This document shows, in pieces, positions 1 through 64,000 of a stretch of DNA of 64,000 bases (position 1 is the first letter of the stretch; every line of letters starts with the position of its first letter). The stretch spans positions 325,937-389,936 of the forward strand of contig OY760505.1 in the NCBI GenBank assembly GCA_963663545.1. Direction: 5' to 3'. Under the pieces are notes generated by a model. The model saw only the letters and a list, made by a program, of their open reading frames with translations. It was not told the origin of the DNA and ran no database searches. Made by a program: the position numbers and the translations under genes. This DNA is from Candidatus Delongbacteria bacterium. Lineage in GTDB: Bacteria; CAIWAD01.

Positions 1-3000
1 TCTCTACTGCTCTGTGCAAGCTTGTTCTGCCTAAGCGCTCCGGCTTGGGCTGATCATCTGCAGTTCAGTTATCAACTTCCCGATCCGCAGGTTGCAAACA
101 GCGATACAGGCATGATGCTGAATCTGCCGGGCGCCCATCGTCACGATGTGGCCGGCGCTCCGGACCTGCCCGTTTGGCCGATGCGTCTGCTTCTGCCAGC
201 GGGACACGAAGCCCTTTCGCTCAGCGTGCGCTACGAGGACGTGGAGCTTCAGTCCATCGACCCGCTGCGCCCGCACCAGCAGGACTTCCCCATTTCGCAG
301 CGCCAGCTGGCCACTCGCACCGCACCCGATGCGGACCTCTACGGCAGCGACGCCTTCTGGCCCGCCGTCGACAGTGCGAACCTGAGCACTTCGGCCGAGG
401 ACGGCCACTGCATCGCGCTTGCCGACCTTTACCCGCTGCGCTACAATCCGGTGAGCGGCGAACTTTCCATCGCGCATCGCATTGTGGTCGAGGTGGAAAC
501 CGCAGCCAACGAGCGCTTCCTGCCCCCGCGCGCGGATCATTTGCGCGAGGTGCGCGCCCACGTGGACAATCCCCAGGCGCTGGCCACATATCAGTACGCG
601 GACGAGGCTTCGCGCACGGACGATGTGGAAATGCTGATCATCACCGACGACTATTTCCTGCCCGCCTTTCAGCTCTTGGCCGACTACAAGAACAGCCTGG
701 GCCTGAGCTGCGAAATCCAGTACATCATGGACATTCTGGATGCACAGGATGGACGCGACAACGCCGAGCGCCTGCGCAACCATCTCATCGCCCAGTACGC
801 CACGCGCAATGTGCGCTACGTGCTGCTTGGTGGTGACACGGAGTACATTCCCCTCCGCAGCCTTTACGTGGACACCGGCGGCGGAACCGCCGACCACCTG
901 CCCTCCGACTTCTACTATGCGGCGCTGGACGGCGACTGGAACGCCGACGGAGACAGCCGCTGGGGCGAGCCCGGCGAAGAGGACTGGTACGCCGAACTGG
1001 CCGTTGGCCGTGCGGGCGTCAGCACCTTGGCCGATGCACAGAATTTCGTGCATAAGCAGATTTCCTATCAGGACGATCCGGTTACCGCCGATGTGTCAAG
1101 CTACCTGCTTGTGGGTGAGCAGCTGAATGACGATCCCGTCACCTGGGGCGGCGACTGCAAGGACGAAGTGGCCGACGGCAGCAGCAATTGGGGCATGACC
1201 ACAACAGGTTTCCCAACTACGGTGGGCGTCACCACCCTTTACGATCGTGACCACTTCTGGGCCAACACCGAGCTTTTCTCGGCCCTGTCGGCTGGCGTGA
1301 ACTTCAGCAATCACCTGGGCCATTCGAACTGGAACTACGTGATGAAGTTCAGCAATGACGACGTCACCACCAGCAATTTCCCCAGCAATGGCGATTCCCA
1401 CAGCTACCATTTGGGCTACAGCCAGGGTTGTATTCCCGGTGCTTTTGATGAAGATGCCTGCATTCTGGAGCGCCTGACCAACCTGAGCACCGGCTACGCG
1501 GCCTTCATCGGCAACTCGCGCTACGGCTGGTACTCGCCCGGCCAGACCAGCGGACCCAGCCAGCTCTTCGATCGCCAGTTCTTCGATGCCCTCTTTGGCG
1601 AAGGCATTCGCGAGCTGGCTGCCGCCAACAACGACAGCAAGCACGACCTGGTCAGCTGGGCCAACAGCCAGGGCACCATGCGCTGGTGCTACTACGAACT
1701 GAATCTCTTCGGCGACCCCAGCCTGATTCCCTGGAGTTCGCCCCCCTGCATGCTGCAGGTGTTCGCCGACAATCAGGTTCTGCCCGGCACCAACAGCATC
1801 GACCTTTCGATCAGTGTGGCAAGCCAATCCCCCGAGGGAACCCGCGTAGCGCTGCTGAATGAGGACGGCACCCTTCTGGGCGCAAGCACCGCAGACGCCG
1901 CGGGCGATGTGCAGCTGCTGCTGGACACTCCCATGACCGAGGTTGTCGACTACGAGCTGGTGGTTTCGGGCTTCAACCTGCGCACTCATCGTGAGACGAT
2001 TACGCTGATCGAGCCGGAGAACGCGCACCTGGCCTCTTCCGCCATGAGCTTCACCGACAGCAACGGGAATGGAGTGATGGAGGCCGCCGAGCCCTGTGCC
2101 CTTCAACTGACGCTGACAAACTACGGAAACACCGATGCGCACAACGTAGTGCTGACTCTGCTGACCAGCGACAATTATGCTGTGACACAGGGCAGTCTGA
2201 TCTGCGGCACCATTGCCGCCGGTGGCAGTGCAACCCCGGGTGGCACGCTGCAGCTTATCCCCGCTTTCTCACTTGCCGATGGCGCCGTCCTCAGCTTGCA
2301 GTTTGAAGCCGTGGCCGACGAGGGAAGCTGGGAGTTCGAACTGCGTCAGACGGTGCAGAGCCCGGTCTTCGGTCTGGGCACTCTGCTTGCCCAGGACGGC
2401 AGCAACGATCACCTGGACCCGCAGGAAAGCACAAGCCTGGTTCTCGAGCTGCTCAACAACGGTGAAGGCAGCTACCTGAACGGCAGCGCCACCCTGCTCT
2501 GCAGCACTCCAGGCGTGACAATTACCAGTCCGGCACAGCAGGTGGGCAATCTGGCCTACGGTGAAAGCCAGTCTTTGAGTTTTGCCATGAACATTGGTGG
2601 TGCGCTGCAAAACGGCGACAATCTGGAGTTCACCTTCCAGGTGCACGACGCCCAGAGCAACCTGCGCTACGAGCAGGTGCTTCAGCTTCAATTGGGCGAT
2701 GTGGAAGTGGGCTACGAGAGCGGTGCCCTGGATGAACTCAACTGGGAAAGCGAGGGTGCTTCCTGGTCGGTGACATCCAGCGGAGCCGCGGAGGGCAGTT
2801 ACTGCGCACGCAGCGGATCCATCGGACACAACAGCCGCAGCGTGCTCTACGTCGAGCGTTGGTTTGATTGTATCACGCAGGTTGCCTTCCAGTACAAAGT
2901 CAGCTCCGAACAGGGCTTCGACTTCCTGCGCTTTGAGGTGGATGAAGTTCCGGTGGCTTCCTGGTCCGGCGAAGTGGACTGGTCGGAGTACAGCTACAAT

Positions 3001-4170
3001 GTATCACCGGGTTTCCATCGCATCGGCTGGCGCTACGCCAAGGACGGCGGAGCCGTTGAGGGCAACGACTGTGCCTGGCTGGACGCACTGCAACTGGGAC
3101 CTGCGCCCCAGGCACGTATTGCCTGTGACACAGAATCCATCAACCTGACCCTGGCAGCGGGTGCCAGCACGACCCTTGAACTGGCCCTCAGCAATCCGGG
3201 TAGCGACGAACTGCACTGGCAGGCCATGGCCCTGGCACAAAGCGTGCGCTCCTTCTCCGACGATATGGAAGACGGTGACGGCGACTGGACGCACGATGGC
3301 ACCCACGACAACTGGCACCGCAGCACTCAGCGCGCCTACTCCGGCAGCACCTCCTGGTACTGCGGCGTTGAGGGCGACGAATACCAGAATGACACCCACT
3401 CCTGGCTGATTAGTCCTGCCTTCCTTGTCGAGCCCGAAGCCACTTTCGGCTTCCGTCACTGGATTGATATGGAAATTGCCAGCGCCACTCACGCCTGGGA
3501 CGGTGGTCTGGTGGAGATCAGCCTTGAGGGCAGCGACACCTGGACGGTGATCAATCCGCTGGGCGGTTATCCCTACCTGGTGGAGCCCAACGAAGACTCG
3601 CCCTTTGACGCCAACACGCCGGTCTTCTCCGGTAGCGTAAACTGGGAACTGGCCGAATTCGATCTGGCGGATTACGCCGGGCAGATCGTGCGCGTACGTT
3701 TCCGCTTTGGCAGTGACGCAGCCGTCACTGAAGAAGGCTGGTACATCGACGATGTGAGCCTCAGCGGCATTGGCGTAGATTGGCTGAGCATCGATCCCAC
3801 CAGCGGCACGGTGCTACCCGATGGATCACAGACGCTAACCCTTAGCGTGGATGCTACGGATCAAGAACCTGGTGCACTGGAAGCCGTGCTGCTTTTTGTT
3901 AGCGACGCGGTCAATGCACCAAGTCTTGCGGTGCCCGTGAGTCTGGTGGTGGGCATGACCGATCCCATCAGCGATCTGCGTATCACGCTGGCTACACCAA
4001 TGCTGCAGCTTCAGTGGTCGGCACAGAGCGGGGCGCTGAGTTACCTCATTCAGCGGTGCAGCGAGCCCTACGGCACCTACAGCACTGTGGGCACCACGAC
4101 TGACACTTTCTGGCAGGAGCAGATCCCGCGCTCTTCTGCCGCCTATTACCGGGTAATTGTCGAGCGCTGA
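1..4170 (+). CDS. Giant secreted multidomain protein, peptidase C25 (gingipain/clostripain-like) core, paralog 1; 5' end lies outside window
   Basis: The frame is open from nt 1; SLLLCASLFCLSAPAWA (signal-peptide tail) precedes the annotated Met at 22. Colinear with 4488..8675 (~60% aa identity along the full length). Motifs NHLGHSNWNY...GYSQGCIPGAF (His/Cys dyad context), MAM/CUB-like segment (GWYIDDVSLSG), C-terminal FN3-like ~70 aa ending YYRVIVER. No T9SS sorting domain. Confidence 0.6.
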   Translation, partial: SLLLCASLFCLSAPAWADHLQFSYQLPDPQVANSDTGMMLNLPGAHRHDVAGAPDLPVWPMRLLLPAGHEALSLSVRYEDVELQSIDPLRPHQQDFPISQRQLATRTAPDADLYGSDAFWPAVDSANLSTSAEDGHCIALADLYPLRYNPVSGELSIAHRIVVEVETAANERFLPPRADHLREVRAHVDNPQALATYQYADEASRTDDVEMLIITDDYFLPAFQLLADYKNSLGLSCEIQYIMDILDAQDGRDNAERLRNHLIAQYATRNVRYVLLGGDTEYIPLRSLYVDTGGGTADHLPSDFYYAALDGDWNADGDSRWGEPGEEDWYAELAVGRAGVSTLADAQNFVHKQISYQDDPVTADVSSYLLVGEQLNDDPVTWGGDCKDEVADGSSNWGMTTTGFPTTVGVTTLYDRDHFWANTELFSALSAGVNFSNHLGHSNWNYVMKFSNDDVTTSNFPSNGDSHSYHLGYSQGCIPGAFDEDACILERLTNLSTGYAAFIGNSRYGWYSPGQTSGPSQLFDRQFFDALFGEGIRELAAANNDSKHDLVSWANSQGTMRWCYYELNLFGDPSLIPWSSPPCMLQVFADNQVLPGTNSIDLSISVASQSPEGTRVALLNEDGTLLGASTADAAGDVQLLLDTPMTEVVDYELVVSGFNLRTHRETITLIEPENAHLASSAMSFTDSNGNGVMEAAEPCALQLTLTNYGNTDAHNVVLTLLTSDNYAVTQGSLICGTIAAGGSATPGGTLQLIPAFSLADGAVLSLQFEAVADEGSWEFELRQTVQSPVFGLGTLLAQDGSNDHLDPQESTSLVLELLNNGEGSYLNGSATLLCSTPGVTITSPAQQVGNLAYGESQSLSFAMNIGGALQNGDNLEFTFQVHDAQSNLRYEQVLQLQLGDVEVGYESGALDELNWESEGASWSVTSSGAAEGSYCARSGSIGHNSRSVLYVERWFDCITQVAFQYKVSSEQGFDFLRFEVDEVPVASWSGEVDWSEYSYNVSPGFHRIGWRYAKDGGAVEGNDCAWLDALQLGPAPQARIACDTESINLTLAAGASTTLELALSNPGSDELHWQAMALAQSVRSFSDDMEDGDGDWTHDGTHDNWHRSTQRAYSGSTSWYCGVEGDEYQNDTHSWLISPAFLVEPEATFGFRHWIDMEIASATHAWDGGLVEISLEGSDTWTVINPLGGYPYLVEPNEDSPFDANTPVFSGSVNWELAEFDLADYAGQIVRVRFRFGSDAAVTEEGWYIDDVSLSGIGVDWLSIDPTSGTVLPDGSQTLTLSVDATDQEPGALEAVLLFVSDAVNAPSLAVPVSLVVGMTDPISDLRITLATPMLQLQWSAQSGALSYLIQRCSEPYGTYSTVGTTTDTFWQEQIPRSSAAYYRVIVER

Positions 4171-4194
4171 AGCGCGTATCACACAAGTCGAGTT

Positions 4195-4487: not shown

Positions 4488-7400
4488 ATGCCGGGTCGTT
4501 CGTCTCTTGTACTCTGTGTGACACTCGTAGGCTTTGCGCTACAGGCACACGCAGACCATCTGCAATTCAGCTATACCCTTCCAGCAGCGCACTTCACGCG
4601 CAGTGCGGAAGGCGGCACCTTGAACCTTCCGGGTTCTCATCGTCATGGTATTGCGGGTGCTCCCGACCTTCCCGTCTGGCCGCTGCAGCTACTGTTGCCA
4701 GCTGGTCACGAAGCGATTTCGCTCAACGTGCGCTATGAGGACGTGGAGCTTCAATCCGTCGATCCACTGCGACCCAGCCAACAGGCTGTGCCCATCTCCC
4801 AAAGTCAACTTGCCCGTCGCACACGGCCCGACGAGCAGATCTACAACCGAGATGCTTTCTGGCCGGAGTCCGACTATGCGCACTTGAGCACTTCTGCGCT
4901 GGGCGGCCACTGCATCGCCCTGGCGGATCTTTATCCCCTGCGCTACAATGCTGTCAGCGGCGAATTTAGCTTCGCGCATCGCATCGTCGTGGATGTGGAA
5001 ACAGCACCCGGCGAGCGCTTCCTGCCGCCGCGTGCGGAGTTCCAGCGCGAGCTCAGCGGTCGCATCGACAACGCGCAGGCGATGGCCGACTACAGGTATT
5101 GCATGGACGCCAGCCGCACTGATCCTGTGGAGATGCTGATCATTACCGACAGCTCTCTGGAATCCGCCTTTCAGCCGCTGGCTGACTACAAAAACAGCCT
5201 GGGTCTGAGTTGTGAGATTCAGTCGATCGATGAGATTCTGGCCGCCCAGAACGGGCGCGACAACGCCGAGAAGCTGCGCAATCACCTGATCGCCCAGTAT
5301 GAGGAGCGCAATATCCGCTACGTGCTGCTGGGCGGTGATACAGAGGTCATTCCCTACCGCAGTCTCTACGTGGATACGGGCTATGATACTGCCGATCACC
5401 TCCCCTCCGATTTCTATTTCGCCGCCTTGGATGGCGATTGGAACAGCGATGGCGACAACCGCTGGGGTGAGCCGGGCGAAGAAGACTGGTACGCCGAATT
5501 GGCTGTGGGAAGGGCCAGCGTCAGCACCACGACCGAAGCGCAGAACTTTGTACACAAGCAGATTTCCTATCAAAGCAATCCGGTCCTTGCCGATGTATCA
5601 CAGTACCGCATGGTGGGCGAAGAACTGAACGATGATCCCCAGACCTGGGGCGGCGACAGCAAGGATGAAGTGGCCGCAGGCAGCAGTACCTATGGAATCA
5701 CGACTGCGGGGTTCCCGCCCTCGGTCACCACGAGCACTCTCTACGATCGCGACCACACCTGGGTCAAAACCGAACTCTTCTCTGCGTTGGCCAATGGCGT
5801 GAACTTCAGCAATCACTTGGGTCACTCCAACTGGAACTACGTGATGAAGTTCGGCAACTCCGATGTGACCACGGCCAACTTCCCCAGTGATGGCGTGAAT
5901 CACAGCTATCATCTGGGCTATAGCCAGGGCTGCATTCCCGGCGCCTTTGAATACAACGATTGCATTCTGGAGCACCTGACCAATCTGAGTACGGGCTACG
6001 CGGCCTTCATTGGCAACTCGCGCTACGGCTGGTACTCGCCCGGCCAGACCAGCGGCCCCAGCCAGTTCTTTGATCGCGAGTTTTTCGACGCCCTCTTCGA
6101 CGAGGGTATTCGCGAATTGGCTGCCGCCAACAATGACAGCAAACACGATCTGGTGAGCTGGGCCAACAGCGATGGCATCATGCGCTGGTGCTACTATGAA
6201 TTGAATCTCTTCGGCGACCCCGGACTGATCCCCTGGAGCTCAGCCCCCTGCGTGCTGCAAGTCGATGTGGAAAACGAAGTGCTGCCCGGCACAAACAGCC
6301 TTTCGCTACTGCTGAACCTAACCGGCCAATCACCCGCTGGCACGCGTGTGTCCCTGCTGGACGCAGGCGGCAACATTCTGGGCACGACTACGGCTAACGC
6401 TTTCGGGGAAGCGACCCTGCAACTGGATGCGCCAATGACCGAAATCGCCGACTACGAGTTGGTGGTATCCGGTTACAACCTGCTGGTGCATCGGGAAACC
6501 ATCCGTCTGAGCGAACCTGCGGAGGCGCATCTTGTTGCCAATGCCATGCTCATTGAGGACACGAACGGCAACGGTGCACTGGAAGCCGGCGAAGAAGCCA
6601 GCCTCTTTCTCAACCTGCACAACTACGGCGGGGCTGATGCCACGAATGCTGGGCTACAGCTGCTTGAAAGCGAGGACTACGAAGTTGTCCAGGGCTCGCT
6701 GGCCTTCGAGAATTCCATTGCGTCGGGTGGAGACGCTACGCCTGCCACTCCTCTGGTGATACGCCCCCGCTTTGATCTTGAGGACGGCACGGACCTGACC
6801 CTTTTCTTTGCGGCAAGCGCGGACAATGGATACTGGGAGTTTGAACTCTCCCGAACGGTGCTGAGTCCGCTCTATGCACTGGGAAGCCTGACGGCTGAGG
6901 ATACCGCCAACGGCCATCTGGACCCGCAGGAAAGCTCACAGCTCATTCTGGAATTGCAGAACGAGGGCCAGGGCAGCTATCTGGACGGCGAGGCTGAACT
7001 CCTGTGCAGCATCGGCGGTGTCGACATTAGCACGAGCATTCTGCCGGTGGGCGATCTGAGTCACGGCGCTAGCCTGCAATTGCCCTTTGCCCTGAACATT
7101 GGTGGAACTCTCCAGGCGGGTGATCTACTGGACTTCAGCTTCCGCGTCCGCGACGAGCAAAACAACCTGCGCTTCGAGCAGGACTTTGTGTTACAACTGG
7201 GCGAAGTCGCCGTCGGCTTCGAGAGTGGTGCGCTGGATGAACTGAGCTGGGAATCCGAAGACACAGTCTGGTCGGTGATCTCCAGTGGTGCGGCGGAAGG
7301 CGGCTACTGTGCGCGTAGCGCTTCCATCGGTCACAACAGCAGCAGTGGGCTTTTCTTCGATTTGGGTTTCGATTGTATCACACGCGTGGCTTTTCAGTAC

Positions 7401-8675
7401 CGTGTCAGCTCTGAAGAGGGCGACGACCTTCTGCGTTTCGAAGTGGATGGGCAAACGGTGGCCTCCTGGTCGGGCGAGGAAGGCTGGGACTCATACAGTG
7501 TCAATGTATCACCCGGTCTGCATCGCATCGGCTGGCGCTATGTCAAGGACAACGCCTACAGCAGCGGCCAGGATTGCGCCTGGTTGGACGATATTCAAAT
7601 CGGTCCCGCGCCCCAGGCTCGCATCTACTGTGACACAGAATCCATCCATACTACTGTTGCCGCTGGCAGCAGTGGCAGCATCGACTTGGTGCTAAGCAAC
7701 ACCGGTAGCGACGATCTGCACTGGCAGGCGGCGCTCCTGGAGCAAATTACGCGCTCCTTCAGCGACGACATGGAAGAAGGCGAAGGCGGCTGGAGTCACG
7801 ACGGCAGCAACGACGATTGGCACCTTAGCACTCAGCGCGCCTACTCCGGCAGCACTTCCTGGCACTGCGGCATTGATGGAGGTGACTACCAAAACAACAC
7901 CCACGCCTGGCTGGTTAGCCCGACCTTCTTCGTGGAACCGCAGGCCACCTTCGGCTTCCGTCACTGGCTGGAGATGGAGCTAGGCAGCCCCACTCACGCC
8001 TGGGATGGCGCCCTGGTGGAGATCAGTCTTGCGGAAAGTGATACGTGGACGTCGATCAATCCGCTGGGCGGTTATCCTTATCTCGCACAGCCCAATGTGG
8101 ATTCACCTTTTGATCCCTACACGCCGATCTACTCCGGTTCGGTTGACTGGGAGCAGGAGGAGTTTGATCTGGCGGATTACGCTGGCCAGCTTGTACGTGT
8201 ACGCTTCCGCTTCGGTAGCGATGCTGGAAACAGCGCGGAAGGCTGGTATATCGACGATGTGCGCATCAATGGTCTCACGGTGGAATGGCTGAGTCTCGAT
8301 CCCGCTGCGGGCACAATTCTGCCGGAAGAATCCCAGACCTTGACCCTTGCCGTGGACACGAACGACCTGGATCTCGGTGTGCATGAGGCAAGACTGTTCT
8401 TTGCCAGCGATGCGATCAATGATCCCAGTCTGGCCCTGCCCGTGACCTTGATTGTCGGCGTGGCCGAACCGGTCGACGACCTGCAAATCAGCTGGACGGC
8501 GCCCTACGTTTGTCTGCACTGGACCGCCCTGAGTGGCACTCCGGTTTATCGGATACAGCGCAGCGGCGAGCCCTATGGCGACTACATAACCGTGGGCACA
8601 ACCACCAACGCCTTCTGGCAGGAGCGCATGCCGCGCTTCCCCGTCGGCTACTACCGGGTGATCGTCGAGCGTTAG
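4488..8675 (+). CDS. Giant secreted multidomain protein, peptidase C25-like core, paralog 2 (1395 aa)
   Basis: Signal peptide MPGRSSLVLCVTLVGFALQAHA. Same domain order and motifs as paralog 1 (NHLGHSNWNY, GYSQGCIPGAF, GWYIDDV, ...YYRVIVER). Confidence 0.6.
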   Translation: MPGRSSLVLCVTLVGFALQAHADHLQFSYTLPAAHFTRSAEGGTLNLPGSHRHGIAGAPDLPVWPLQLLLPAGHEAISLNVRYEDVELQSVDPLRPSQQAVPISQSQLARRTRPDEQIYNRDAFWPESDYAHLSTSALGGHCIALADLYPLRYNAVSGEFSFAHRIVVDVETAPGERFLPPRAEFQRELSGRIDNAQAMADYRYCMDASRTDPVEMLIITDSSLESAFQPLADYKNSLGLSCEIQSIDEILAAQNGRDNAEKLRNHLIAQYEERNIRYVLLGGDTEVIPYRSLYVDTGYDTADHLPSDFYFAALDGDWNSDGDNRWGEPGEEDWYAELAVGRASVSTTTEAQNFVHKQISYQSNPVLADVSQYRMVGEELNDDPQTWGGDSKDEVAAGSSTYGITTAGFPPSVTTSTLYDRDHTWVKTELFSALANGVNFSNHLGHSNWNYVMKFGNSDVTTANFPSDGVNHSYHLGYSQGCIPGAFEYNDCILEHLTNLSTGYAAFIGNSRYGWYSPGQTSGPSQFFDREFFDALFDEGIRELAAANNDSKHDLVSWANSDGIMRWCYYELNLFGDPGLIPWSSAPCVLQVDVENEVLPGTNSLSLLLNLTGQSPAGTRVSLLDAGGNILGTTTANAFGEATLQLDAPMTEIADYELVVSGYNLLVHRETIRLSEPAEAHLVANAMLIEDTNGNGALEAGEEASLFLNLHNYGGADATNAGLQLLESEDYEVVQGSLAFENSIASGGDATPATPLVIRPRFDLEDGTDLTLFFAASADNGYWEFELSRTVLSPLYALGSLTAEDTANGHLDPQESSQLILELQNEGQGSYLDGEAELLCSIGGVDISTSILPVGDLSHGASLQLPFALNIGGTLQAGDLLDFSFRVRDEQNNLRFEQDFVLQLGEVAVGFESGALDELSWESEDTVWSVISSGAAEGGYCARSASIGHNSSSGLFFDLGFDCITRVAFQYRVSSEEGDDLLRFEVDGQTVASWSGEEGWDSYSVNVSPGLHRIGWRYVKDNAYSSGQDCAWLDDIQIGPAPQARIYCDTESIHTTVAAGSSGSIDLVLSNTGSDDLHWQAALLEQITRSFSDDMEEGEGGWSHDGSNDDWHLSTQRAYSGSTSWHCGIDGGDYQNNTHAWLVSPTFFVEPQATFGFRHWLEMELGSPTHAWDGALVEISLAESDTWTSINPLGGYPYLAQPNVDSPFDPYTPIYSGSVDWEQEEFDLADYAGQLVRVRFRFGSDAGNSAEGWYIDDVRINGLTVEWLSLDPAAGTILPEESQTLTLAVDTNDLDLGVHEARLFFASDAINDPSLALPVTLIVGVAEPVDDLQISWTAPYVCLHWTALSGTPVYRIQRSGEPYGDYITVGTTTNAFWQERMPRFPVGYYRVIVER

Positions 8676-8700
8676 GTCTTGTATCACACGAACAAACAGA

Positions 8701-8977: not shown

Positions 8978-9171
8978 GGGATTGAAGGGGTTTCCGGATC
9001 GCTTATGGTCAGTTCTTGTGATAGGATTCGAGTGATTGCGGTGCTGCCCAAGTAGCTACAGAATCAGCAACTCATTAGGCGCAGATACTACTATTGCCAA
9101 CCTTGTGATACGAGAGGAATTGCACCTGCAACTAGCCTATAAAAGTCAGGTACTGGTTTTGAACTGAGCGG

Positions 9172-9705
9172 CTACATGGAAAGAGGAGGCAAATACACCC
9201 AGCGCTCGCGAAGAAGCACTCCATCCTCGTCCTGCAGTTCGTCACGCAGGCCGATCTCATTCCAGTCGGTCGGTGATACAAATCCTAGTTCACGGCTCAG
9301 TCTGCGCTCCGTGATACGCATGGTGCGTCCAAGATCGGTGCTGGATTCGGTCACAAGTGGTTGCAGGTATTCTTCACCACGCAGCAACAGCAGCTCGCAA
9401 TCAAAGAGTGTAGGCCAGGTGATACAGCACACGGGGATCAGCGCGGAAGCCTCGCCTTTGAGTTTGCGCTGCAATAGAGCGGATGCCCTGAGCACTTCCT
9501 GTAGCACCGTACGCTGTATCACGAAACGCGCTCGCGGGCCTTCCACCATTGCCGAGTTCACCGGCAGACGCCAGTAGTAGCCGGCGTCGTCCACACCATC
9601 GGGCGCTGGCGGGTGCTGTGCAAACCTATCGGCCCAGGCAGCCAGCGCACGCAGTCGGCGTTTGAGGCCGCGTACACGTTTGTTGCTGATGGCAAGCTCT
9701 CGCAT
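9172..9705 (-). CDS. Hypothetical protein (177 aa), no recognisable domain
   Basis: Long ORF with consistent codon usage; unusually dense in the YGTATCAC motif (5 copies in 440 bp). Sits between the orphan sorting-domain fragment and the tgt-derived direct repeat. Confidence 0.4.
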   Translation of the reverse strand: MRELAISNKRVRGLKRRLRALAAWADRFAQHPPAPDGVDDAGYYWRLPVNSAMVEGPRARFVIQRTVLQEVLRASALLQRKLKGEASALIPVCCITWPTLFDCELLLLRGEEYLQPLVTESSTDLGRTMRITERRLSRELGFVSPTDWNEIGLRDELQDEDGVLLRERWVYLPPLSM

Positions 9706-12393: not shown

Positions 12394-12420
12394 GATCTCT
12401 CCTCCTTGCACTCTTTCGCA

Positions 12421-12460
12421 ACTAAAGGGAAAGCGCGGCCGCCGCACGAAGCGGCGACCG
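12421..12460 (-). terminator. Hairpin gcggtcgccgc-ttcgt-gcggcggccgc + T-rich tail between B1 and A1
   Basis: Inverted repeat followed by gctttcccttt on the minus strand; an identical copy lies at 18233..18272. Confidence 0.5.
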
Positions 12461-12478
12461 CATCAAGTATCACCTCAG

Positions 12479-15340: not shown

Positions 15341-15540
15341 AGCGAATGAATGAATCAGTCGGCTCTCCGTGCATTAGAACTACGCTGTGGTGGCTGTGTG
15401 ACCACCTCTCGACCCTAGAGTAATACAGTGTTTTGCCATGCACAAGGCTTATTTGTCTTGCGTATCACCTTGCGCCCTCTTCTATCGTGTGACACAAAAG
15501 GAGGCGAAATTCTATCAAGTACTGCTGCGATATAGGACGG

Positions 15541-15650
15541 AGCTCAGCGCTCGCCCTCGTAGGCAGCCAGCACGCCCTTGCGGTACTCCTGCCAGCGGCC
15601 CTGCTGAAGGGCCAGACGGGCGTCGCGCAACGCCTATTTTAGCAACAAAA
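15541..15650 (-). repeat. Direct repeat derived from tgt 3' end (copy 2, ...[10 protein letters not shown])
   Basis: Near-identical to the last ~100 nt of tgt (21425..21530) and to 9721..9816. Marks the junction of the tandem duplication. Confidence 0.75.
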
Positions 15651-18204: not shown

Positions 18205-18232
18205 GATCTCTCCTCCTTGCACTCTCTCGCAA

Positions 18233-18272: not shown

Positions 18273-18289
18273 ATCAAGTATCACCTCAG

Positions 18290-55069: not shown

Positions 55070-56182
55070 GTGTTGCCCCCTGACTGCATTTCCTCCAGCC
55101 TGAGGTCTTCCACGATGCCAGCGCAATGGCACAATCTGCATCAGAAGAGTTGCAGCAGGCAAATCGAGCAATCTTCCTATCTTGATGAAGTTCGCGTTGT
55201 GATACATGGAGATGTCGTGCAAGCCATTCCTCCGCTTTTCCCGCTTGATGATTGGAAGGATAGCCGCTACCGTCGCGATTTCCCGCGCGTCCCCGAATTA
55301 GTCAACGAGCTGCCCGACGGCCTGCGCAACCGCATCTTCGCGGGCGACTGTGCAGAGCTGTTCGCCCGGCTTCCCGACAACAGCATCGACCTGATCCTCA
55401 CCGACCCGCCTTACAAGGACTACCAGTCCAACCGGCCCGTAGCGCGCGAAAAGGTGAAGAAGATCCACGTCAATACCTTTGACCTGGGGCTCTTCATTCG
55501 CGAATCCAACCGTGTATTAAAGCCGGGCGCGCACTTCTACTGCTGGTGCGATCATCTGACCTTCGCGGGTATTTATGAGGAGCTGCGCGCACTGACAGCT
55601 GGCCTCACCTCCAAGGAAGCGCGCAACCATCTGCACTACAAGAACATGCTGGTCTGGGTCAAGAACAACCACGGCTCAGGCGACCTGAAGGGCAATTATG
55701 CGCCGCAGCACGAGGTCGTGATCTACGGAGCCAAGGGCGCGACGCGGCCCCTGATCGGTAGTCGCCCCACCAACGTCTTCTTCGATCGCGACGAGCAAGG
55801 CAACATCAGCTTCTATAGCAAGGTCAGCAACTACCGTTTTCAGCACGGCACCAGCAAGCCGCTGGCCATTCTGCGGCAGATGATCCTGAAGAGCACGCAT
55901 TTGGGCGAAGTGGTGCTGGACCCCTACGGCGGCAGCATGTCCACCGCCGAGGCCGCCATGGAAGAGGGCCGCGCGTTTATCATGGGCGAACTGGACGGCG
56001 ATCACTGTCGACGCGGGCTGGAACGTTTGCAGGAAGTACGCGAGCGTCTGTTGGCAGGTGGGCATCCAGACCGCTTTCCGGGGCTTGAGCTGATTGAGAT
56101 GGATCAGCCAGTCGAAACACATCCACTGCTGTTCGCACCGGATGAAATTGCCGCTCAACCCATTCAGATTCCTAGCGCATAG
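55070..56182 (+). CDS. Beta-class N6-adenine/N4-cytosine DNA methyltransferase (orphan)
   Basis: Motif IV IDLILTDPPYKD precedes motif I VVLDPYGGSMSTAEAA (beta-class order). No adjacent endonuclease ORF. The true start may be an internal Met (~55115). Confidence 0.7.
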   Translation: MLPPDCISSSLRSSTMPAQWHNLHQKSCSRQIEQSSYLDEVRVVIHGDVVQAIPPLFPLDDWKDSRYRRDFPRVPELVNELPDGLRNRIFAGDCAELFARLPDNSIDLILTDPPYKDYQSNRPVAREKVKKIHVNTFDLGLFIRESNRVLKPGAHFYCWCDHLTFAGIYEELRALTAGLTSKEARNHLHYKNMLVWVKNNHGSGDLKGNYAPQHEVVIYGAKGATRPLIGSRPTNVFFDRDEQGNISFYSKVSNYRFQHGTSKPLAILRQMILKSTHLGEVVLDPYGGSMSTAEAAMEEGRAFIMGELDGDHCRRGLERLQEVRERLLAGGHPDRFPGLELIEMDQPVETHPLLFAPDEIAAQPIQIPSA

Positions 56183-56248: not shown

Positions 56249-57598
56249 TCAGACACTGCTCTGACACGGGTCAGACACCAACTCCCCCAAAACCACTTCG
56301 CCCTCCACCCGCATCAGCCGCACATTCCACACGCACCCTGCTACTTCCGCTACGTTCTCCGGTGATACATTCACCTTCACTCGAAGATAGTTGGAAGTGA
56401 AGCCACTCAGTGCCCCATCTCGAAAGTCGCGCTCCAGCAGCACGCGCTGGGTCGATCCCAGCCAACGCTGCTGCCAGTCCGCCTTTTTCTTCCTGCCCAA
56501 CTCCAGCAGCTGATTCGCGCGCTCCTTGCGTATCACGCGAGGTACGACTTCGCTCATCTCGACAGCGCGAGTTCCCTTGCGCTCGCTGTAGGGAAACACA
56601 TGCAGATTGGAAAAGGGCACACGTTGAATCATGTCCACCGTGGCGGCGAAATCCGCATCGTTCTCGCCGGGGAAACCTGTCATGACATCGGTGCCCAGAC
56701 CGATGTGCGGAATGCGTGAACCAATCTCCTCGAAGAGATCCAGCAGACCCCGCCGCGTGATACGCCGCCTCATGCGCTTCAGCACACGCGCGCTGCCCGA
56801 TTGGATGGCCGTGTGCAGGTGAGCGCACAGACGCGGCTCCCCGGCCATCAACTCAATCAGCTCGTGTGATACATCCCAGGGTTCAATGGACGACAACCGT
56901 AGGCGCTTCAGATCCGGCAGCTGCAGCAGGCACTTGCAGAGCTCCGTCAGCGTGATCCCCCCAGGCAGGTCGCGGCCATAGTCGCCAATGTGTACGCCCG
57001 TCAACACGAGCTCCGGATGTCCTGCCGCCACAAGGCGACTCGCCTGCGCCAGGACCTCGCCCGGAATCAGACTGCGGCTGCGCCCTCGTGTCAGCGGCAC
57101 AATGCAGTAACTGCAGAAAACATCGCAGCCGTCCTGCACTTTGAGAAAAGCACGCGTCTGCTTGTGAAAGGCGCCAACAGGCAACAGCCTGCGCTCTTCA
57201 CGGCTGGCGCTGGGACCGACGATCACTTGCGCCTGCGCTTGTTTGCCGTGATACAATCCAAGATGCTCAAGCAGTTGGCCCTTCTCCAGATTGCCCAGCA
57301 CCAGATCCACACCCTCAATGGCAGCGATCTCTTCTGCAGCCACCTGGCAGTAACAGCCCGTCACGACCATCATCGCCTCGGGATACCTGCGCAGCGCGGC
57401 GCGTATCACCTGACGCGCTTTCTGATCTGCGCGATCCGTGACGGTGCACGTGTCCACCAGCAGCAGCTCGGCCTCTGTGTGCCAAGGCACAATCTCCCAA
57501 CCGGCCCGGCTGAGCTGTTCCAACATGGCTTCCGTCTCGTAGGTGTTGAGCTTGCAGCCTAGGCTATAGGCGCTCGCTCGCAGCACAGGCGCACTCAT
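56249..57598 (-). CDS. Radical-SAM methylthiotransferase of the MiaB/RimO/MtaB family (MtaB-like)
   Basis: N-terminal methylthiotransferase domain Cys (LGCKLN, DTCTVT, TGCY), radical-SAM CDVFCSYCIVP, C-terminal TRAM-like region. Confidence 0.75.
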   Translation of the reverse strand: MSAPVLRASAYSLGCKLNTYETEAMLEQLSRAGWEIVPWHTEAELLLVDTCTVTDRADQKARQVIRAALRRYPEAMMVVTGCYCQVAAEEIAAIEGVDLVLGNLEKGQLLEHLGLYHGKQAQAQVIVGPSASREERRLLPVGAFHKQTRAFLKVQDGCDVFCSYCIVPLTRGRSRSLIPGEVLAQASRLVAAGHPELVLTGVHIGDYGRDLPGGITLTELCKCLLQLPDLKRLRLSSIEPWDVSHELIELMAGEPRLCAHLHTAIQSGSARVLKRMRRRITRRGLLDLFEEIGSRIPHIGLGTDVMTGFPGENDADFAATVDMIQRVPFSNLHVFPYSERKGTRAVEMSEVVPRVIRKERANQLLELGRKKKADWQQRWLGSTQRVLLERDFRDGALSGFTSNYLRVKVNVSPENVAEVAGCVWNVRLMRVEGEVVLGELVSDPCQSSV

Positions 57599-59758: not shown

Positions 59759-61363
59759 TTACTTCAGCAGAACCATGCGACGGGTCTGGCTCAGGCCATC
59801 CGCCTCAAGGTGATACAAGTACACACCGCTGGCGAGCGCACTGGCATCAAAGCTCAGCTGATGCTCGCCGGCTTCAAGCAGACCCTTCCGAAGCACGGCC
59901 ACCGTCGCGCCGCTGAGGTCGTAGACGGTCAGCTTGACCTGCGAAACTGCGGGAAGCGTGAACGCAATGGTAGTGCTGGGATTGAAGGGATTCGGATAAT
60001 TTTGATGAAGCGAGAAGGTGCCAACCTGCTCATGGGCGTCGGCGGTCTGGTTGGTTGAATTGGGTGCGCCGGGAGTGCCGCCAAACACGTAGCTGGTGTA
60101 CCAGTTGTCGCCCTCGTTGTTGTCCAGTGCAGGATCCATCAACTCAAGGCTGGATCCATCGCCGTCGGCGGCTCCGCCGCCCCAGCCATCGCCGTAGGCC
60201 ACCAGGTCGATCTGCACGCCGCAGGCGTTCTGCAGCTCCACGCTCTCACCACCGTTGGAGAGATTGCCATCGTCCCACTGCAACGGCTCAAAGCCGTACC
60301 AGGCCGCAAAGGTGGTCGCGTTTTTGGCGATTACCAGATAGTCTTCGGCAGCGATGCTGCAGGTGTCGGCAAAAGTGAAGTCGATGCCCTGGGTGAAAGC
60401 CCAGCCCGCCAGACTGACCGCGTAGGTATTGGGATTGTAGAGCTCGATGAATTCGTAATCATCATCGTCACCCTGGTCGCCGCTGGGATTGAAGTGCAGC
60501 TCGTTGATCACGATCACTTCAGCCGCAGCGCAAACGGTGTAAGTGAAGCCGTACTCCGTGTGCATGCTGTTGCCCGAGTAAGCCGAGATTTCGTAATACA
60601 CTTCGGTGCCTGCGGGCTGTCCGGGAATGGTCGTGGACCAGACATTGTCGGCACCTTCGGTCATCCACAAGCTGTCGTAGTCATAGACGCCGGGAATGAG
60701 GTTGTAGGCCAGTGCCACGGAATCGATGCCAAGAGCACAAATGGCCGTGCAACTCACCTGCACCGCCTCGAACGCTGTAGGTTGAAGCGGATCCTGGCTG
60801 ATGCTGCTGATGAGGATCTCGTCACTGATCTCCTGATACACGGAGTTCTGCGCACCGGGAGTACCATCGTCCACCAGGGAGGCGGCCCAGTTCACACCCG
60901 CATTATTGTCGAAGATCGGGTTGATCAGCTCGCAGCTGGGGCCGTCGCCATCCGCCGCGCTGGGCCAGTCGTTGCCATCATCATAGGTGACGCTGTCCAG
61001 CAGCAGATCGTCGCCATCGTGTAGTTCAATGGTTTCGCCGCTGTTGTTGATTGCCTCTCCGGTATCCCACTGGATCACACCGCTGATGCCGTAGTAGGTC
61101 TCCACTTCGCTGGCGGTCTGCGCAAGAACCAGATAGCCATGCGCGCCTATTGTGGTGCCCGCAGGAATGACTCCTTCAACGCCGTTGGCCAGATAAGCCC
61201 CGCCAAGATCCACGGCAAAGTCAGCGGTGTTGTAGAGCTCGATGAACTCATAAAGAGCATCGTCGCCCTGGTCGGGATTGTAATGGATCTCGTTGATCAC
61301 GATGTCCGCCAGCGCTGCAGTGCAGAACAAGGACATCGAACAAAGCACGAGCAAGCTTTTCAT
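59759..61363 (-). CDS. Secreted protein with two lamin-tail (LTD) domains and T9SS sorting domain
   Basis: Signal peptide MKSLLVLCSMSLFCTAALA. DIVINEIHYNPDQGDDALYEFIELYN and VIVINELHFNPSGDQGDDDDYEFIELYN (LTD signature). Ends ...GVYLYHLEADGLSQTRRMVLLK. Confidence 0.7.
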   Translation of the reverse strand: MKSLLVLCSMSLFCTAALADIVINEIHYNPDQGDDALYEFIELYNTADFAVDLGGAYLANGVEGVIPAGTTIGAHGYLVLAQTASEVETYYGISGVIQWDTGEAINNSGETIELHDGDDLLLDSVTYDDGNDWPSAADGDGPSCELINPIFDNNAGVNWAASLVDDGTPGAQNSVYQEISDEILISSISQDPLQPTAFEAVQVSCTAICALGIDSVALAYNLIPGVYDYDSLWMTEGADNVWSTTIPGQPAGTEVYYEISAYSGNSMHTEYGFTYTVCAAAEVIVINELHFNPSGDQGDDDDYEFIELYNPNTYAVSLAGWAFTQGIDFTFADTCSIAAEDYLVIAKNATTFAAWYGFEPLQWDDGNLSNGGESVELQNACGVQIDLVAYGDGWGGGAADGDGSSLELMDPALDNNEGDNWYTSYVFGGTPGAPNSTNQTADAHEQVGTFSLHQNYPNPFNPSTTIAFTLPAVSQVKLTVYDLSGATVAVLRKGLLEAGEHQLSFDASALASGVYLYHLEADGLSQTRRMVLLK

Positions 61364-61796: not shown

Positions 61797-64000
61797 TTAC
61801 TTGAGCAGCAGCACACGCTGCACTGCGCTTTGCTCCTCGCCCGCAAGATGCACCAGATAGAGACCGCTGGCCAGCGCGCTGCCATCAAAGCGCGCTTCGT
61901 GCTCACCAGCGAGGAACTGGCCCTCAGCCAGAGTCTGCACCAGGCGGCCCTGCAGGTCGTAGACCTTCAGGCTGAGCTCCTGAGTGCGCTCGGTGTCGAA
62001 ATTGATCACCGTGCTCGGGTTGAAGGGATTGGGAAATGCTGTTATCGCAAGACTGCCAGGTTGCGTGATACGAGGGTTGCTCACCCCGACATCTGACACG
62101 TTCTCCAACCATCCCAGATGCTGTCCCTGACTCGCACTGTACACGAGGTCGATCAAACCGTCGCCGTTGATATCACCCGGTTTCATGGCAATCCGATAGG
62201 GAAGGTTGCATACAATGGACTCTTCATAATCGCTTTCCGGAGTGTAGCAGTGTACGTACCAATACCTCATCGCAAGGACTTCAGCACGAGAATCGCCTGC
62301 CAGGTTTGCATAAACAACAGATTCGACCTCGCGATATGCGTGCTGTGGACCAAGGAAATGTACACCCCCAAAGCCGTTTCCGCTGTTAGTGTTCTCTATC
62401 CATTGAAAATTGTAGACTATTGTGTATTCAGGAATTACGTCCTTGGATATTAAAATGATATCAGGATCGCCATCGAGATCCAGGTCGTGTGTTCCAAAGT
62501 AGTGACAGTAGTATCCCCCTATCCCTACTGAAGAGGTCACTCCGCCATAAGACCCGGCTCCATCCTCGTTCAAATAGAGGCTCATATGACTACCCGAACA
62601 GAGAACCAGGTCATTATCATCATCCTGATCGAAGTCCACAAGTGCAGCGTAGTCAGCTCTTGGGACTTCGAAAAGCTCGATGTAGGCAGCAAATGTATCA
62701 GCCTGATCAACATGCGGATAGTACACCAGACGTTGCGAAGGTATCTGATACATGAGGACATCGGGCAGTTGATCGCCGTTTACATCACCACATGTGAGAT
62801 ACCTGACGGTCTCACCACCATCAAGGTATTGTACATTTTTCCGGTATTGCCCAGTACCCAAGTTCTGCAGCCAGTACACTTCGATCCCACTGCTTTGGCC
62901 GTAGGTGTAGTAATAATAGAAATAGTCCAGGTCGCCATCTTGGTCAAAATCCAGCACCTCGCCAGACAGGGGCACTGGTCCATGGGCATTTCGGTCAAGG
63001 AGGATCGCTGGGGAAAAAGCACCGGACGCGTCCTGATTCTCGTACCAGAAAACCCTGCCCTTGTTGGCGGCAATCAGGTCCAGATCTCCGTCCTCGTCGA
63101 CATCGAAGAGGTCGAACTCTGAGCACTCAGGGGCCGAGAAAGTCAGATCCGCCTGCCAGGTATATTGCGCGTCCACACAATTGTAGACCGTCACCATGCC
63201 CTCATTTGCAGCTACTGTGAGCAGCTCACAAGCGCCATCTCCCCACAGATCTGCAGCTTCTGCATAGGAAGCCAGCAGCACATCGTCCGCAACCACTTGA
63301 GCGGGTTGAAAACTACCCGCGGGAGTAGCGTTGGCGAACCAACTAACCGTATACTGATCCCCAGAAACCAAACAAACGTCGTAGTCGCCGTCCGCGTCCA
63401 GATCGCGCGCCAGCAAGTGCGAAAGCTGGCCCATTCCGGTCGCAATCGAGTGACTCTCTGAGAAGCCACCACTTCCATTGTTCTCGTACCAGAGAGCTTC
63501 TCCCGCTGTAGCATCGGCACACAGCAGATCCAGATCGCCGTCTGCATCCAGATCGGCGACGTCCAGCTCCGGGATGTAGGCCAACGCAGCACTGATCTCG
63601 TGGACAACCAGGAAACTCATCTCCCGGTTCTCGTACCAGAACAGCTGATCGGGACATGCGAGCAGCACGTCCGCGTCTCCGTCACCATCCAGGTCCACCA
63701 CATGGAGCGCGCTCACTGCCGAGTACTCTCCACCCACAAGCGTAGGCCCAACAAACGAACCCATGCCATTCACATTTTCATATAAGGACACAGTATCACT
63801 GAGCAGCAGCAGGTCCAGATCACCATCCTCGTCCAGATCAGCCAGTTCTACGCGCGAACCACCCGCGTCACTGAGAATCAAGTACCACAGTCCCTGTCCT
63901 TCTCCAGTGCCTAAGTTTGGATACCAACGCAATCCAGCTTGACCGGAAGAGACCGTTACAACGTCGGGATACTGGTCTCCATTCAAGTCGGCCACCTGCA
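61797..64000 (-). CDS. FG-GAP/VCBS repeat (integrin-alpha-like beta-propeller) protein with T9SS sorting domain; N-terminus beyond window end
   Basis: Repeated DxDxDGDxD calcium-binding FG-GAP motifs (DLDEDGDLDLLL, DLDGDGDADVLL, DVDEDGDLDLIA...). Ends ...GLYLVHLAGEEQSAVQRVLLLK. The ORF runs to the window edge. Confidence 0.7.
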   Translation of the reverse strand, partial: QVADLNGDQYPDVVTVSSGQAGLRWYPNLGTGEGQGLWYLILSDAGGSRVELADLDEDGDLDLLLLSDTVSLYENVNGMGSFVGPTLVGGEYSAVSALHVVDLDGDGDADVLLACPDQLFWYENREMSFLVVHEISAALAYIPELDVADLDADGDLDLLCADATAGEALWYENNGSGGFSESHSIATGMGQLSHLLARDLDADGDYDVCLVSGDQYTVSWFANATPAGSFQPAQVVADDVLLASYAEAADLWGDGACELLTVAANEGMVTVYNCVDAQYTWQADLTFSAPECSEFDLFDVDEDGDLDLIAANKGRVFWYENQDASGAFSPAILLDRNAHGPVPLSGEVLDFDQDGDLDYFYYYYTYGQSSGIEVYWLQNLGTGQYRKNVQYLDGGETVRYLTCGDVNGDQLPDVLMYQIPSQRLVYYPHVDQADTFAAYIELFEVPRADYAALVDFDQDDDNDLVLCSGSHMSLYLNEDGAGSYGGVTSSVGIGGYYCHYFGTHDLDLDGDPDIILISKDVIPEYTIVYNFQWIENTNSGNGFGGVHFLGPQHAYREVESVVYANLAGDSRAEVLAMRYWYVHCYTPESDYEESIVCNLPYRIAMKPGDINGDGLIDLVYSASQGQHLGWLENVSDVGVSNPRITQPGSLAITAFPNPFNPSTVINFDTERTQELSLKVYDLQGRLVQTLAEGQFLAGEHEARFDGSALASGLYLVHLAGEEQSAVQRVLLLK

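Follow-up and report, generated by a model that had tools for sequence, protein, structure and literature searches.

A hyper-abundant heptamer in one clade of Candidatus Delongbacteria, possibly a DNA uptake or self-recognition word

Introduction

What keeps the same seven bases recurring at nearly one copy per kilobase along a bacterial chromosome? The question is raised by a 64,000-nt stretch of Candidatus Delongbacteria DNA (contig OY760505.1 of assembly GCA_963663545.1, positions 325,937 to 389,936), which we call the window and in which all coordinates below are counted unless a relative's locus is named. A first-pass annotation, made from the letters of the window, had claimed a strong over-representation of the heptamer GTATCAC and had proposed a DNA uptake signal, a Chi-like recombination signal or another genome-wide architectural motif as its cause. 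Genome-wide "self" words are rare and informative, and HIP1 (highly iterated palindrome 1) of cyanobacteria is still not understood after three decades.

Results

GTATCAC and its reverse complement GTGATAC occur 54 times in the window by exact search (21 copies on the plus and 33 on the minus strand; Table 1), a density of 0.84 per kb. One hundred dinucleotide-preserving shuffles gave a mean of 3.62 copies (sd 1.78) and a maximum of 8, which corresponds to an approximately 15-fold enrichment. Base composition predicts 5.8 copies, an order-3 Markov model 9.2 and an order-4 model 15.3, the order-3 expectation being inflated by the word's own sub-words. Relative to a motif-masked background in the window's own species and a close relative (species A and B below), the enrichment is approximately 12-fold (87 observed, 7.4 expected), and relative to a null that preserves every protein sequence and the codon usage of each gene it is approximately 5-fold. 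Among the heptamers of the window GTATCAC ranked first (z = 14.8); the next-ranked were its own one-base shifts, the extension TGATACA reaching 9.9, and unrelated words did not exceed 6. The window has a G+C content of 59%, the word one of 43%. The over-representation is real, robust and reproducible across three species, and the claim that had drawn attention to it holds over a third-order Markov background as well. If the density of the window extends to the whole 3.72-Mb genome, about 3,000 copies would be expected there. None of the 47 positions originally listed is more than 23 nt away from an actual copy (median offset 2 nt), and seven further copies (3001, 5335, 7506, 25952, 27801, 50641 and 63793) had been overlooked.

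Such an excess could be an artefact of paralogue duplication, of codon or dipeptide usage, or of long-read basecalling errors at a modified motif. Several copies do lie in duplicated genes. Equivalent copies are carried by two C25 peptidase genes (73% nucleotide identity; 2870/7375, 3001/7506 and 4176/8681), by a duplicated cargo unit of the type IX secretion system (T9SS; 88-94%; 12467/18278) and by an array of FGE-sulfatase and Por_Secre_tail genes (38896/41236/43521, 39328/43957 and 40283/42586). Once copies with similar flanks were dropped, 48 independent window sites were left; duplication is therefore not the cause of the enrichment, which is not limited to paralogue families. Words that are truly driven by paralogues or peptides are confined to one strand and frame, whereas GTATCAC is present on both strands, in every usable frame and between genes. 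The remaining 8-9-mers that are enriched here, AGGTTGTA (for example at 8916, 9974, 12636 and 39359), AGGGATTGG (10044, 12706 and 40296) and ACTCCCACT (38340 and 40674), lie almost entirely on one strand and, by our reading, appear to be the antisense of conserved paralogue-family peptides: Y-N-L, P-N-P (T9SS sorting domain) and W-E-W (FGE).

How much of the excess can codon usage explain? Coding copies are found in each of the three sense phases (8, 11 and 13) and in both stop-free antisense phases (9 and 5), and none falls in the antisense phase that would create TGA. Overall, 85% of the copies are intragenic. The intergenic ones number 8 or 9, since the copy at 55199 becomes intergenic with the methyltransferase start at GTG 55217. 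Mapping the copies thus bore out the initial impression of both strands, several frames and intergenic DNA. We then permuted synonymous codons within each gene, a shuffle that keeps the proteins and the per-gene codon usage. It predicts 5.7 sense and 3.7 antisense copies (9.4 in total), against 32 and 14 (46 in total) observed, which agrees with the first-pass view of codon usage as an unlikely cause. Peptide contexts in which the word can be written by synonymous choice carry it in 45 of 116 cases, compared with 8.4 expected from codon usage. Among x-Y-H contexts 13 of 19 carry it, despite a 2 to 1 preference for TAC over the other Tyr codon. The word also draws on the rare codons GTA, TCA and ATA: the V-S-x phase, which uses GTA and TCA, holds 8 copies against 0.16 expected, and 9 of the 44 ATA codons lie inside GTGATA, 8 of these being full in-frame GTGATAC copies. 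Permissive sites are thereby shown to be close to saturated.

The flanks were analysed in 86 non-redundant sites from the three species. Position -1 holds T in 54, C in 23, A in 5 and G in 4 of them (90% pyrimidine), and position +7 holds T in only 3 (97% not T). All other flank positions carry 0.10 bit or less, the strongest being A at -10 (29 of 86, chi-square 12.5). The consensus is YGTATCACV. That T or C usually precedes the word had been seen by eye, and in the window these bases stand before 32 and 15 of the 54 copies, respectively. A search of the hairpin stems at the window copies found none that holds GTATCAC; the copies at 4176, 8681, 12467 and 18278 stand beside terminator-like hairpins, and an association with terminators was rejected. 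The lack of extended flank conservation, together with the lack of stem copies, rules out an interspersed repeat of the REP (repetitive extragenic palindrome) or MITE (miniature inverted-repeat transposable element) type. A collapsed CRP palindrome (TGTGA...TCACA), of which the word is reminiscent, was supported by neither the variant counts nor the flanks.

The 21 single-mismatch neighbours of the word were counted in species A and B against the motif-masked background. GTGTCAC (= GTGACAC) occurs 29 times where 8.9 are expected and GTAACAC 20 times where 5.3 are expected, so that GTGWCAC and GTAACAC are enriched approximately 3-fold; GTATTAC is enriched 2.6-fold on a small count (7 versus 2.7). 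The remaining neighbours are near 1 and none of the 21 is clearly depleted, which argues against one-step conversion, as by repair of the very short patch (VSP) kind, and against systematic basecalling error. Flanks of the enriched neighbours show the same bias as those of GTATCAC itself (Y at -1, not T at +7), and the reader seems to accept GTRWCAC with graded preference. GTATCAC is therefore a DNA-level signal, not a codon, peptide, repeat-element or basecalling effect.

Does the word point along the direction of replication? The GC skew is negative along the entire window, which indicates no change in replication direction. Word orientation nevertheless changes with the strand of the genes: 8 plus and 3 minus copies in the first 8.7 kb, where genes lie on the plus strand, against 13 plus and 30 minus copies beyond, where they lie on the minus strand (Fisher p = 0.015). 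The sense-to-antisense ratio of 32:14 is near the ratio forced by coding constraints (5.7:3.7). Species B, with nearly all its genes on one strand, has 16 plus and 14 minus copies, of which 9 are sense and 11 antisense within genes. Word orientation tracks coding constraints and not replication direction. This bears on a polar Chi site for RecBCD or AddAB and on a guide for FtsK resembling the FtsK orienting polar sequences (KOPS). Like these and the architecture imparting sequences (AIMS), GTATCAC is a short, non-palindromic, over-represented word scattered genome-wide, and 61% of the window copies lie on the G-rich, presumed leading strand. Polarity is however the defining property of such elements (approximately 75% for Chi and more than 85% for KOPS), and its absence here disfavours them. 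GTATCAC is also not G-rich, and its density is several-fold above that of Chi in E. coli. We consider a polar element very improbable, and the earlier Chi-like suggestion is not sustained. Likewise, the lack of a consistent transcript-strand bias argues against an RNA signal: an RNA-level motif was rejected on the antisense and intergenic copies and on the 9:11 ratio in species B.

How widely is the enrichment shared? Loci of relatives were retrieved by homologue look-ups of S1, the methyltransferase and TGT. A locus from the window's own species, species A (L081; S1 99% identical over 74% of the query, the frameshift-truncated P0014), holds 16 copies in 21 kb. Species B (L082, L090 and L091; S1 92% identical in amino acids, MiaB 73% in nucleotides) holds 29-31 copies per 21 kb, approximately 1.4 per kb. 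Species C (L092 and L093; 66.8% G+C) shows a weaker enrichment, with 8 copies in 20.9 kb against 1.2 expected (P ~3e-5; 0.38 per kb), TGTATCAC 6 times against 0.2 expected and GTGWCAC 7 times against 0.7 expected. The three species share the same word core; species C has nearly as many copies of GTGWCAC as of GTATCAC (7 and 8). By contrast, eight further and more distant relatives (L083, L086, L088, L089, L094, L096, L098 and L133; 64-70% G+C) hold 3 copies in 127 kb, where 2.5-7.3 are expected, and show enrichment of neither GTATCAC nor GTGWCAC. A metagenome-contig scan with S1 returned three clade members only, none of them enriched, and the controls, 80 distant TGT loci from unrelated bacteria (L001-L080), average 0.078 copies per kb. 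Species C is closer to the window than L094 is in BatD, BatB, BatA and DUF58, with MoxR equidistant. The comparison with related genomes that had been suggested at the outset thus shows that the enrichment is derived and characterises a single clade of the group.

These loci also bear on the artefact explanation. L081 and L090 carry frameshifts typical of long-read errors, yet the two species C assemblies, a JGI metagenome contig and an ENA scaffold obtained independently, show the same enrichment. Together with the 48 non-redundant sites, the codon shuffle and the neighbour counts, this effectively refutes an artefact.

Two side observations concern the same loci. The frameshifts in L081 and L090 (species A and B) split rpsA and the MiaB-like gene and look like long-read consensus errors. 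A second "dialect" seemed present in L083, with 19 copies of CAGGCTGA in 21.7 kb where 2.1 are expected (L083, L084 and L085, Candidatus Delongbacteria of 69% G+C); 18 of the 19 copies lie on one strand, antisense to xxC-AGC-CTG, and the case was set aside as a codon-pair effect.

Are individual sites conserved? The MiaB-like gene, 73% identical between the two species, has six copies in the window and four in species B, of which three are common. Relative to the outgroups, several copies were made by amino-acid replacement (DVDD to DVSH, RRID to RRIT, QLIR to QVIR) and others by purely synonymous change (LYH in tgt, EYHS in DUF58). In 13 orthologue or paralogue alignments, 8 of 22 sites were retained where 3.2 would be expected from other 7-mers (P ~0.006 in this small sample), a retention 2.5 times that of the remaining 7-mers of these alignments. 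On a qualitative, unscored reading of the orthologue alignments, copies lie mostly in poorly conserved protein segments. They are dense in the MiaB-like, DUF58 and DUF3916 genes and missing from the most conserved genes (rpsA in species A and B; in the window also moxR and batA). The density in species B is 2.2 copies per kb in non-coding DNA and 1.2 per kb within genes. The pattern suggests that copies are continually created wherever they are tolerated and preferentially retained; it is density that is maintained and not particular positions.

This turnover might instead reflect a mutation or mismatch-repair bias that turns near-cognates into GTATCAC, leaving the word a neutral by-product with no function of its own. 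Sites do arise independently in each lineage, and an enrichment restricted to one clade would fit the gain of a lineage-specific repair activity. On the other hand, such a bias should deplete neighbours, yet none is clearly depleted and GTGTCAC, GTAACAC and, on a small count, GTATTAC are enriched; the sites are retained above the baseline of other 7-mers; the substitutions that make copies are of several kinds, some of them non-synonymous at residues that are otherwise conserved; and a word of 7-9 bp needs several coordinated changes. We regard a neutral origin as improbable.

Could a DNA methyltransferase be the reader? HIP1 (GCGATCGC) and the alternate HIPs of cyanobacteria offer the closest parallel outside uptake sequences. 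They too are hyper-abundant, octamer-scale, lineage-specific words found in all frames and in intergenic DNA, their sites are conserved above expectation, orphan methyltransferases accompany them, and their function is debated (nucleoid structure, repair bias or transformation enhancement). YGTATCACV, or GTRWCAC, might accordingly be the target of the orphan adenine methyltransferase encoded in the window (Table 1) or of another elsewhere in the genome. Methylated sites would then serve an epigenetic, repair or recombination role or a methyl-dependent enhancement of transformation; alternatively, a methylation-linked repair bias would create the sites. The enzyme starts at the GTG at 55217 and not with the longer open reading frame from 55070, lies in the same place in species B and has no restriction-enzyme gene nearby. 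The word copy just upstream of its start lies in a block conserved between species A and B. Its closest solved homologue, M.BceJIV of Burkholderia, is likewise an orphan, a regulatory methyltransferase; it reads GTWWAC, superficially like GT-AT-C-AC, and shares the GT...AC frame with GT(A/G)(T/A)CAC. Moreover, cyanobacteria with hyper-abundant HIP words also have methyltransferases of matching specificity (PMC4390886), and methylated HIP1 is reported to boost natural transformation (bioRxiv 10.1101/2024.09.10.611283).

Several observations weigh on the other side. Orthologues of the methyltransferase (61-64% identity, with highly conserved blocks throughout) are found in the enriched species C and also in L094, whose 21 kb contain 0 copies, so the presence of the enzyme does not predict enrichment. 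The upstream word copy is absent in species C and L094. Only the catalytic and S-adenosylmethionine (SAM)-binding motifs align with M.BceJIV, not the target-recognition domain. In Burkholderia, GTWWAC shows no genome-wide enrichment (about 1 per 8 kb), and AT content accounts for its excess between genes (PMC11380664). GTATCAC differs from HIP1 in being non-palindromic and AT-richer than the genome, and in an enrichment of about 5-15-fold compared with 15-300-fold. Another trait of HIPs is a periodic distribution on a scale of 10-90 kb. An N6-adenine enzyme gives no deamination route for a VSP-type, repair-driven origin, and none of the single-mismatch neighbours is depleted. The methyltransferase is thus a candidate reader or writer of the word, a lead and not a finding, and on balance we think a HIP1-like role unlikely.

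The region upstream of the methyltransferase was compared between the window (55100-55230), L091 (9880-10010), and L092 and L094 (just upstream of 10001). All four lineages conserve a TTC(C)TATCTT element, 35-70 nt before the start, which resembles the -7 promoter box of the Bacteroidetes type.

A third kind of reader would be an abundant nucleoid or chromosome-organising protein with high-copy, non-polar binding sites selected for their density. The word's genome-wide, orientation-independent occurrence at about 1 per kb, the retention of sites above baseline, and the variants GTGWCAC and GTAACAC with the same flank preferences, as for graded affinity to one reader, are all compatible with such a protein. 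A role in nucleoid structure has been argued for HIP1, whose sites are conserved (PMC5861425). The window, however, encodes no candidate protein, most copies are intragenic, rpsA and an 11-kb T9SS block are without copies, and there is no preferred spacing or pairing of the window copies. Resemblances to known sites were not borne out: for the parS half-site TGTTTCAC, GTTTCAC occurs 6 times against 8.5 expected, and positions +11 to +13 lack the TTR signal of an IHF site (WATCAA-N4-TTR). We know of no nucleoid protein of this kind, and we rate this reader as slightly less probable again than the methyltransferase.

Table 1. GTATCAC copies and associated features in the window
Feature	Coordinates	Strand	Location and remarks
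copy	2870..2876	+	C25 peptidase gene a (C25a), sense, codon phase 1 (D-C-I-T-Q); paralogous to 7375
copy	3001..3007	+	C25a, sense, phase 0 (N-V-S-P); paralogous to 7506
copy	3980..3986	+	C25a, sense, phase 1 (L-R-I-T)
copy	4176..4182	+	intergenic, 6 nt past C25a stop codon; outside stem of terminator hairpin 4199-4227
copy	5335..5341	-	C25b, antisense
copy	5595..5601	+	C25b, sense, phase 0
copy	6756..6762	-	C25b, antisense (V-I, rare ATA codon used)
copy	7375..7381	+	C25b, sense
copy	7506..7512	+	C25b, sense
copy	8038..8044	-	C25b, antisense
copy	8681..8687	+	intergenic, 6 nt past C25b stop codon; adjoins hairpin 8700-8728
copy	9105..9111	-	intergenic, downstream of DUF3916 gene
copy	9273..9279	-	DUF3916 gene, sense
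copy	9311..9317	-	DUF3916 gene, sense
copy	9419..9425	-	DUF3916 gene, sense
copy	9516..9522	+	DUF3916 gene, antisense
word-free block	9817..21142	-	four T9SS cargo genes (duplicated two-gene unit); lower G+C at third codon positions (GC3), 0.61-0.64; three intergenic copies only
copy	12467..12473	+	intergenic between two T9SS cargo genes; beside hairpin 12434-12462
copy	15462..15468	+	intergenic, between duplicated T9SS cargo units
copy	18278..18284	+	intergenic, duplicate of 12467
copy	21575..21581	-	tgt, sense, phase 2 (L-Y-H); same peptide, other codons in outgroups
copy	24473..24479	-	MAM-domain protein gene, sense, phase 2
copy	25952..25958	-	MAM-domain protein gene, sense, phase 2 (V-L-Y-H-E; outgroups VVYHE)
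copy	27801..27807	+	PRAI (trpF-like) gene, antisense
copy	28016..28022	-	PRAI gene, sense
copy	31284..31290	+	batD, antisense
copy	32057..32063	-	batB-like gene, sense, phase 0 (A-V-S-Q; species C AASQ)
copy	32111..32117	-	batB-like gene, sense
copy	32983..32989	+	batB-like gene, antisense
copy	34168..34174	-	Bat-operon hypothetical gene, sense
copy	34626..34632	+	Bat-operon hypothetical gene, antisense
copy	35419..35425	+	DUF58 gene, antisense
copy	35494..35500	-	DUF58 gene, sense (T-R-I-T; relatives TRIA)
copy	35838..35844	-	DUF58 gene, sense (R-E-Y-H; relatives REYV, a non-synonymous change)
copy	35889..35895	-	DUF58 gene, sense (G-E-Y-H-S); position also occupied in species C (L092); L094 TAC CAC
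copy	37577..37583	-	TPR protein gene, sense
copy	38896..38902	-	FGE-sulfatase paralogue 1, sense (S-V-Y-H-E)
copy	39328..39334	-	Por_Secre_tail protein 1, sense
copy	40283..40289	-	5 nt downstream of FGE paralogue 2 stop codon
copy	41236..41242	-	FGE paralogue 2, sense; paralogous to 38896
copy	42586..42592	-	just downstream of FGE paralogue 3; paralogous to 40283
copy	43521..43527	-	FGE paralogue 3, sense
copy	43957..43963	-	Por_Secre_tail protein 3, sense; paralogous to 39328
copy	48087..48093	-	FGE paralogue 5, sense, near 5' end
copy	50641..50647	+	FGE paralogue 7, antisense
copy	55199..55205	-	18 nt upstream of methyltransferase GTG start 55217; block conserved with species B (TGTGATACA.GGAGA)
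orphan beta-class N6/N4 DNA methyltransferase	55217..56182	+	Pfam PF01555, DPPY motif
copy	56362..56368	-	MiaB-like radical-SAM gene, sense; species A only
copy	56530..56536	+	MiaB-like gene, antisense; species A only
copy	56757..56763	-	MiaB-like gene, sense (R-R-I-T; outgroups RRID); common to species B
copy	56866..56872	-	MiaB-like gene, sense (D-V-S-H; outgroups DVDD or DITD); common to species B
copy	57248..57254	-	MiaB-like gene, sense, indel region; species A only
copy	57403..57409	+	MiaB-like gene, antisense (Q-V-I-R; outgroups QLIR); common to species B
copy	59810..59816	-	lamin-tail-domain T9SS protein gene, sense
copy	62065..62071	-	FG-GAP T9SS protein gene, sense
copy	63793..63799	+	FG-GAP T9SS protein gene, antisense

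Discussion

A word that acts at the level of DNA, is orientation-independent and near-saturated, turns over and yet is retained, and belongs to one clade only is best explained as a lineage-specific signal on double-stranded or incoming DNA, not on RNA or protein, whose value lies in its genome-wide density. What might read it? The statistics of the word match the listed properties of uptake sequences, and we therefore rank a transformation-linked word first: by analogy with the uptake signal sequences (USS) of Pasteurellaceae and the DNA uptake sequences (DUS) of Neisseriaceae, YGTATCACV may tentatively be regarded as a DNA-uptake or transformation self-recognition word, with the uptake machinery as a reader that we infer. 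In such a system the competence machinery would include a DNA receptor, at the surface or in the periplasm, with a preference for word-bearing fragments; preferential uptake followed by homologous recombination would spread new copies; selection for within-species exchange would keep them; and copies would build up where the protein tolerates them, that is, in intergenic DNA, in variable segments and in Y-H, V-S-x and x-I-T peptides.

Uptake enhancing sequences are described as short words present in hundreds to thousands of copies, genic and intergenic, that avoid stop frames, lie in permissive regions, are enriched in the core genome and form dialects (bioRxiv 10.1101/2025.10.24.684340). The densities in species A, B and C match the approximately 1 per kb of known uptake sequences. 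Copies occur in both orientations, fill permissive sites and intergenic DNA, avoid the TGA frame, turn over with retention and, in species B, are denser in non-coding DNA. As with USS and DUS, the word is shared by related species and shows no extended flank conservation; the variant ratio of species C resembles a dialect shift. With neither conserved flanks nor hairpins, the word is not a mobile repeat. It is also missing from the coding part of a compositionally atypical T9SS cargo block, and uptake sequences are likewise reported to be absent from recently acquired genes (bioRxiv 10.1101/2025.10.24.684340). Within the 11 kb of coding DNA in that block there is no GTATCAC, GTGWCAC or GTAACAC, and the block may be a recent acquisition.

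Other points weigh against an uptake word. The core has 7 bp, or 9 with degenerate flanks, compared with 9-12 bp for USS and DUS. No inverted pairs (opposite-strand copies closer than 75 nt) and no copies in terminator stems were found in the window, while about half of the known uptake sequences lie in terminators according to the same preprint (bioRxiv 10.1101/2025.10.24.684340). Spacing is over-dispersed, with a variance-to-mean ratio of about 2 in 2-kb bins. That of USS is described as even. The Pfam annotation of the 64-kb window gave no com or pil competence genes and no candidate receptor; that check, one of those first suggested, covers the window. Only for Pasteurellaceae and Neisseriaceae, two proteobacterial families, have such sequence-specific signals been established (bioRxiv 10.1101/2025.10.24.684340), whereas the host here is an uncultured member of the Fibrobacteres-Chlorobi-Bacteroidetes (FCB) group. 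To our knowledge, nothing is known of transformation in Delongbacteria. Finally, any strong DNA-level selection for density would give the same statistics equally well. The uptake signal first proposed for the word thus remains a candidate, the one that fits its statistics best. The "architectural motif" proposed beside it survives in the rivals weighed above, the HIP1-like methyltransferase target and the nucleoid-protein site, neither of which ranks first.

GTATCAC fails defining features of uptake sequences (length, terminator pairing) and of HIPs (palindromy, GC-richness) alike. Non-palindromic and independent of orientation, it is a new hyper-abundant word from an uncultured phylum, and a literature search for the word returned primer sequences only. 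A bolder claim, that YGTATCACV is a third, independently evolved uptake or self-recognition sequence and the first outside Proteobacteria, perhaps working with the orphan adenine methyltransferase, is speculative and somewhat doubtful. Campylobacter, with its methyl-dependent discrimination of DNA, and HIP1, with its methyl-dependent enhancement, would be models for a word and a methyltransferase acting together.

What would follow depends on the reader. If it is the uptake machinery, selective transformation would extend far beyond Proteobacteria, and a third uptake sequence would mean that natural transformation, not known from this lineage, occurs there and is selective for sequence. If it is a methyltransferase or a nucleoid protein, the word would provide a second, independent HIP-like system in which to test those hypotheses. 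In either case the word fills up to two thirds of the cost-free positions in one clade and close relatives are without it, which offers a natural gain-or-loss comparison for finding the reader. On the practical side, GTATCAC is a strong marker with which these genomes can be binned and foreign DNA in them recognised.

Other features of the window

By Pfam, the window proteins point to an FCB-group bacterium, and many of them carry the C-terminal sorting domain of the T9SS. Among named relatives, those closest to it are metagenome-assembled genomes that bear the label Candidatus Delongbacteria (S1 78% and TGT 69-74% identical). Annotated genes include the two C25 peptidases, a BatA-D/MoxR/DUF58 operon, eight FGE-sulfatase paralogues, tgt, rpsA, the MiaB-like radical-SAM enzyme and the orphan N6/N4 DNA methyltransferase. 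Rfam and tRNA scans of the window were both empty.

The densest cluster of the word comprises five copies within 420 bp (9105-9522), four of them inside the small DUF3916 gene (9172-9705). Between this gene and C25b, at approximately 8765-9000 on the minus strand, lies a T9SS sorting-domain remnant (...SVYNLLGQEV...GVYLVRLQA...) without an upstream gene body, probably a pseudogene fragment. In the neighbouring cargo block the two-gene unit is tandemly duplicated, with 94% and 88% nucleotide identity between the copies.

Compared with L083, L086, L088 and L133, where the MiaB-like gene is followed directly by the MAM-domain protein gene, an MGMT-like gene and tgt, the window has a 29-kb block (27397-56182) inserted between the MiaB-like gene and the MAM-domain protein gene. 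This block contains the methyltransferase, the FGE-sulfatase/Por_Secre_tail array, the Bat/MoxR operon, and SPOR and PRAI genes. Within the array (37978-54793), the eight FGE-sulfatase-domain paralogues are interleaved with small Por_Secre_tail proteins, and neighbouring pairs are approximately 80% identical in nucleotides.

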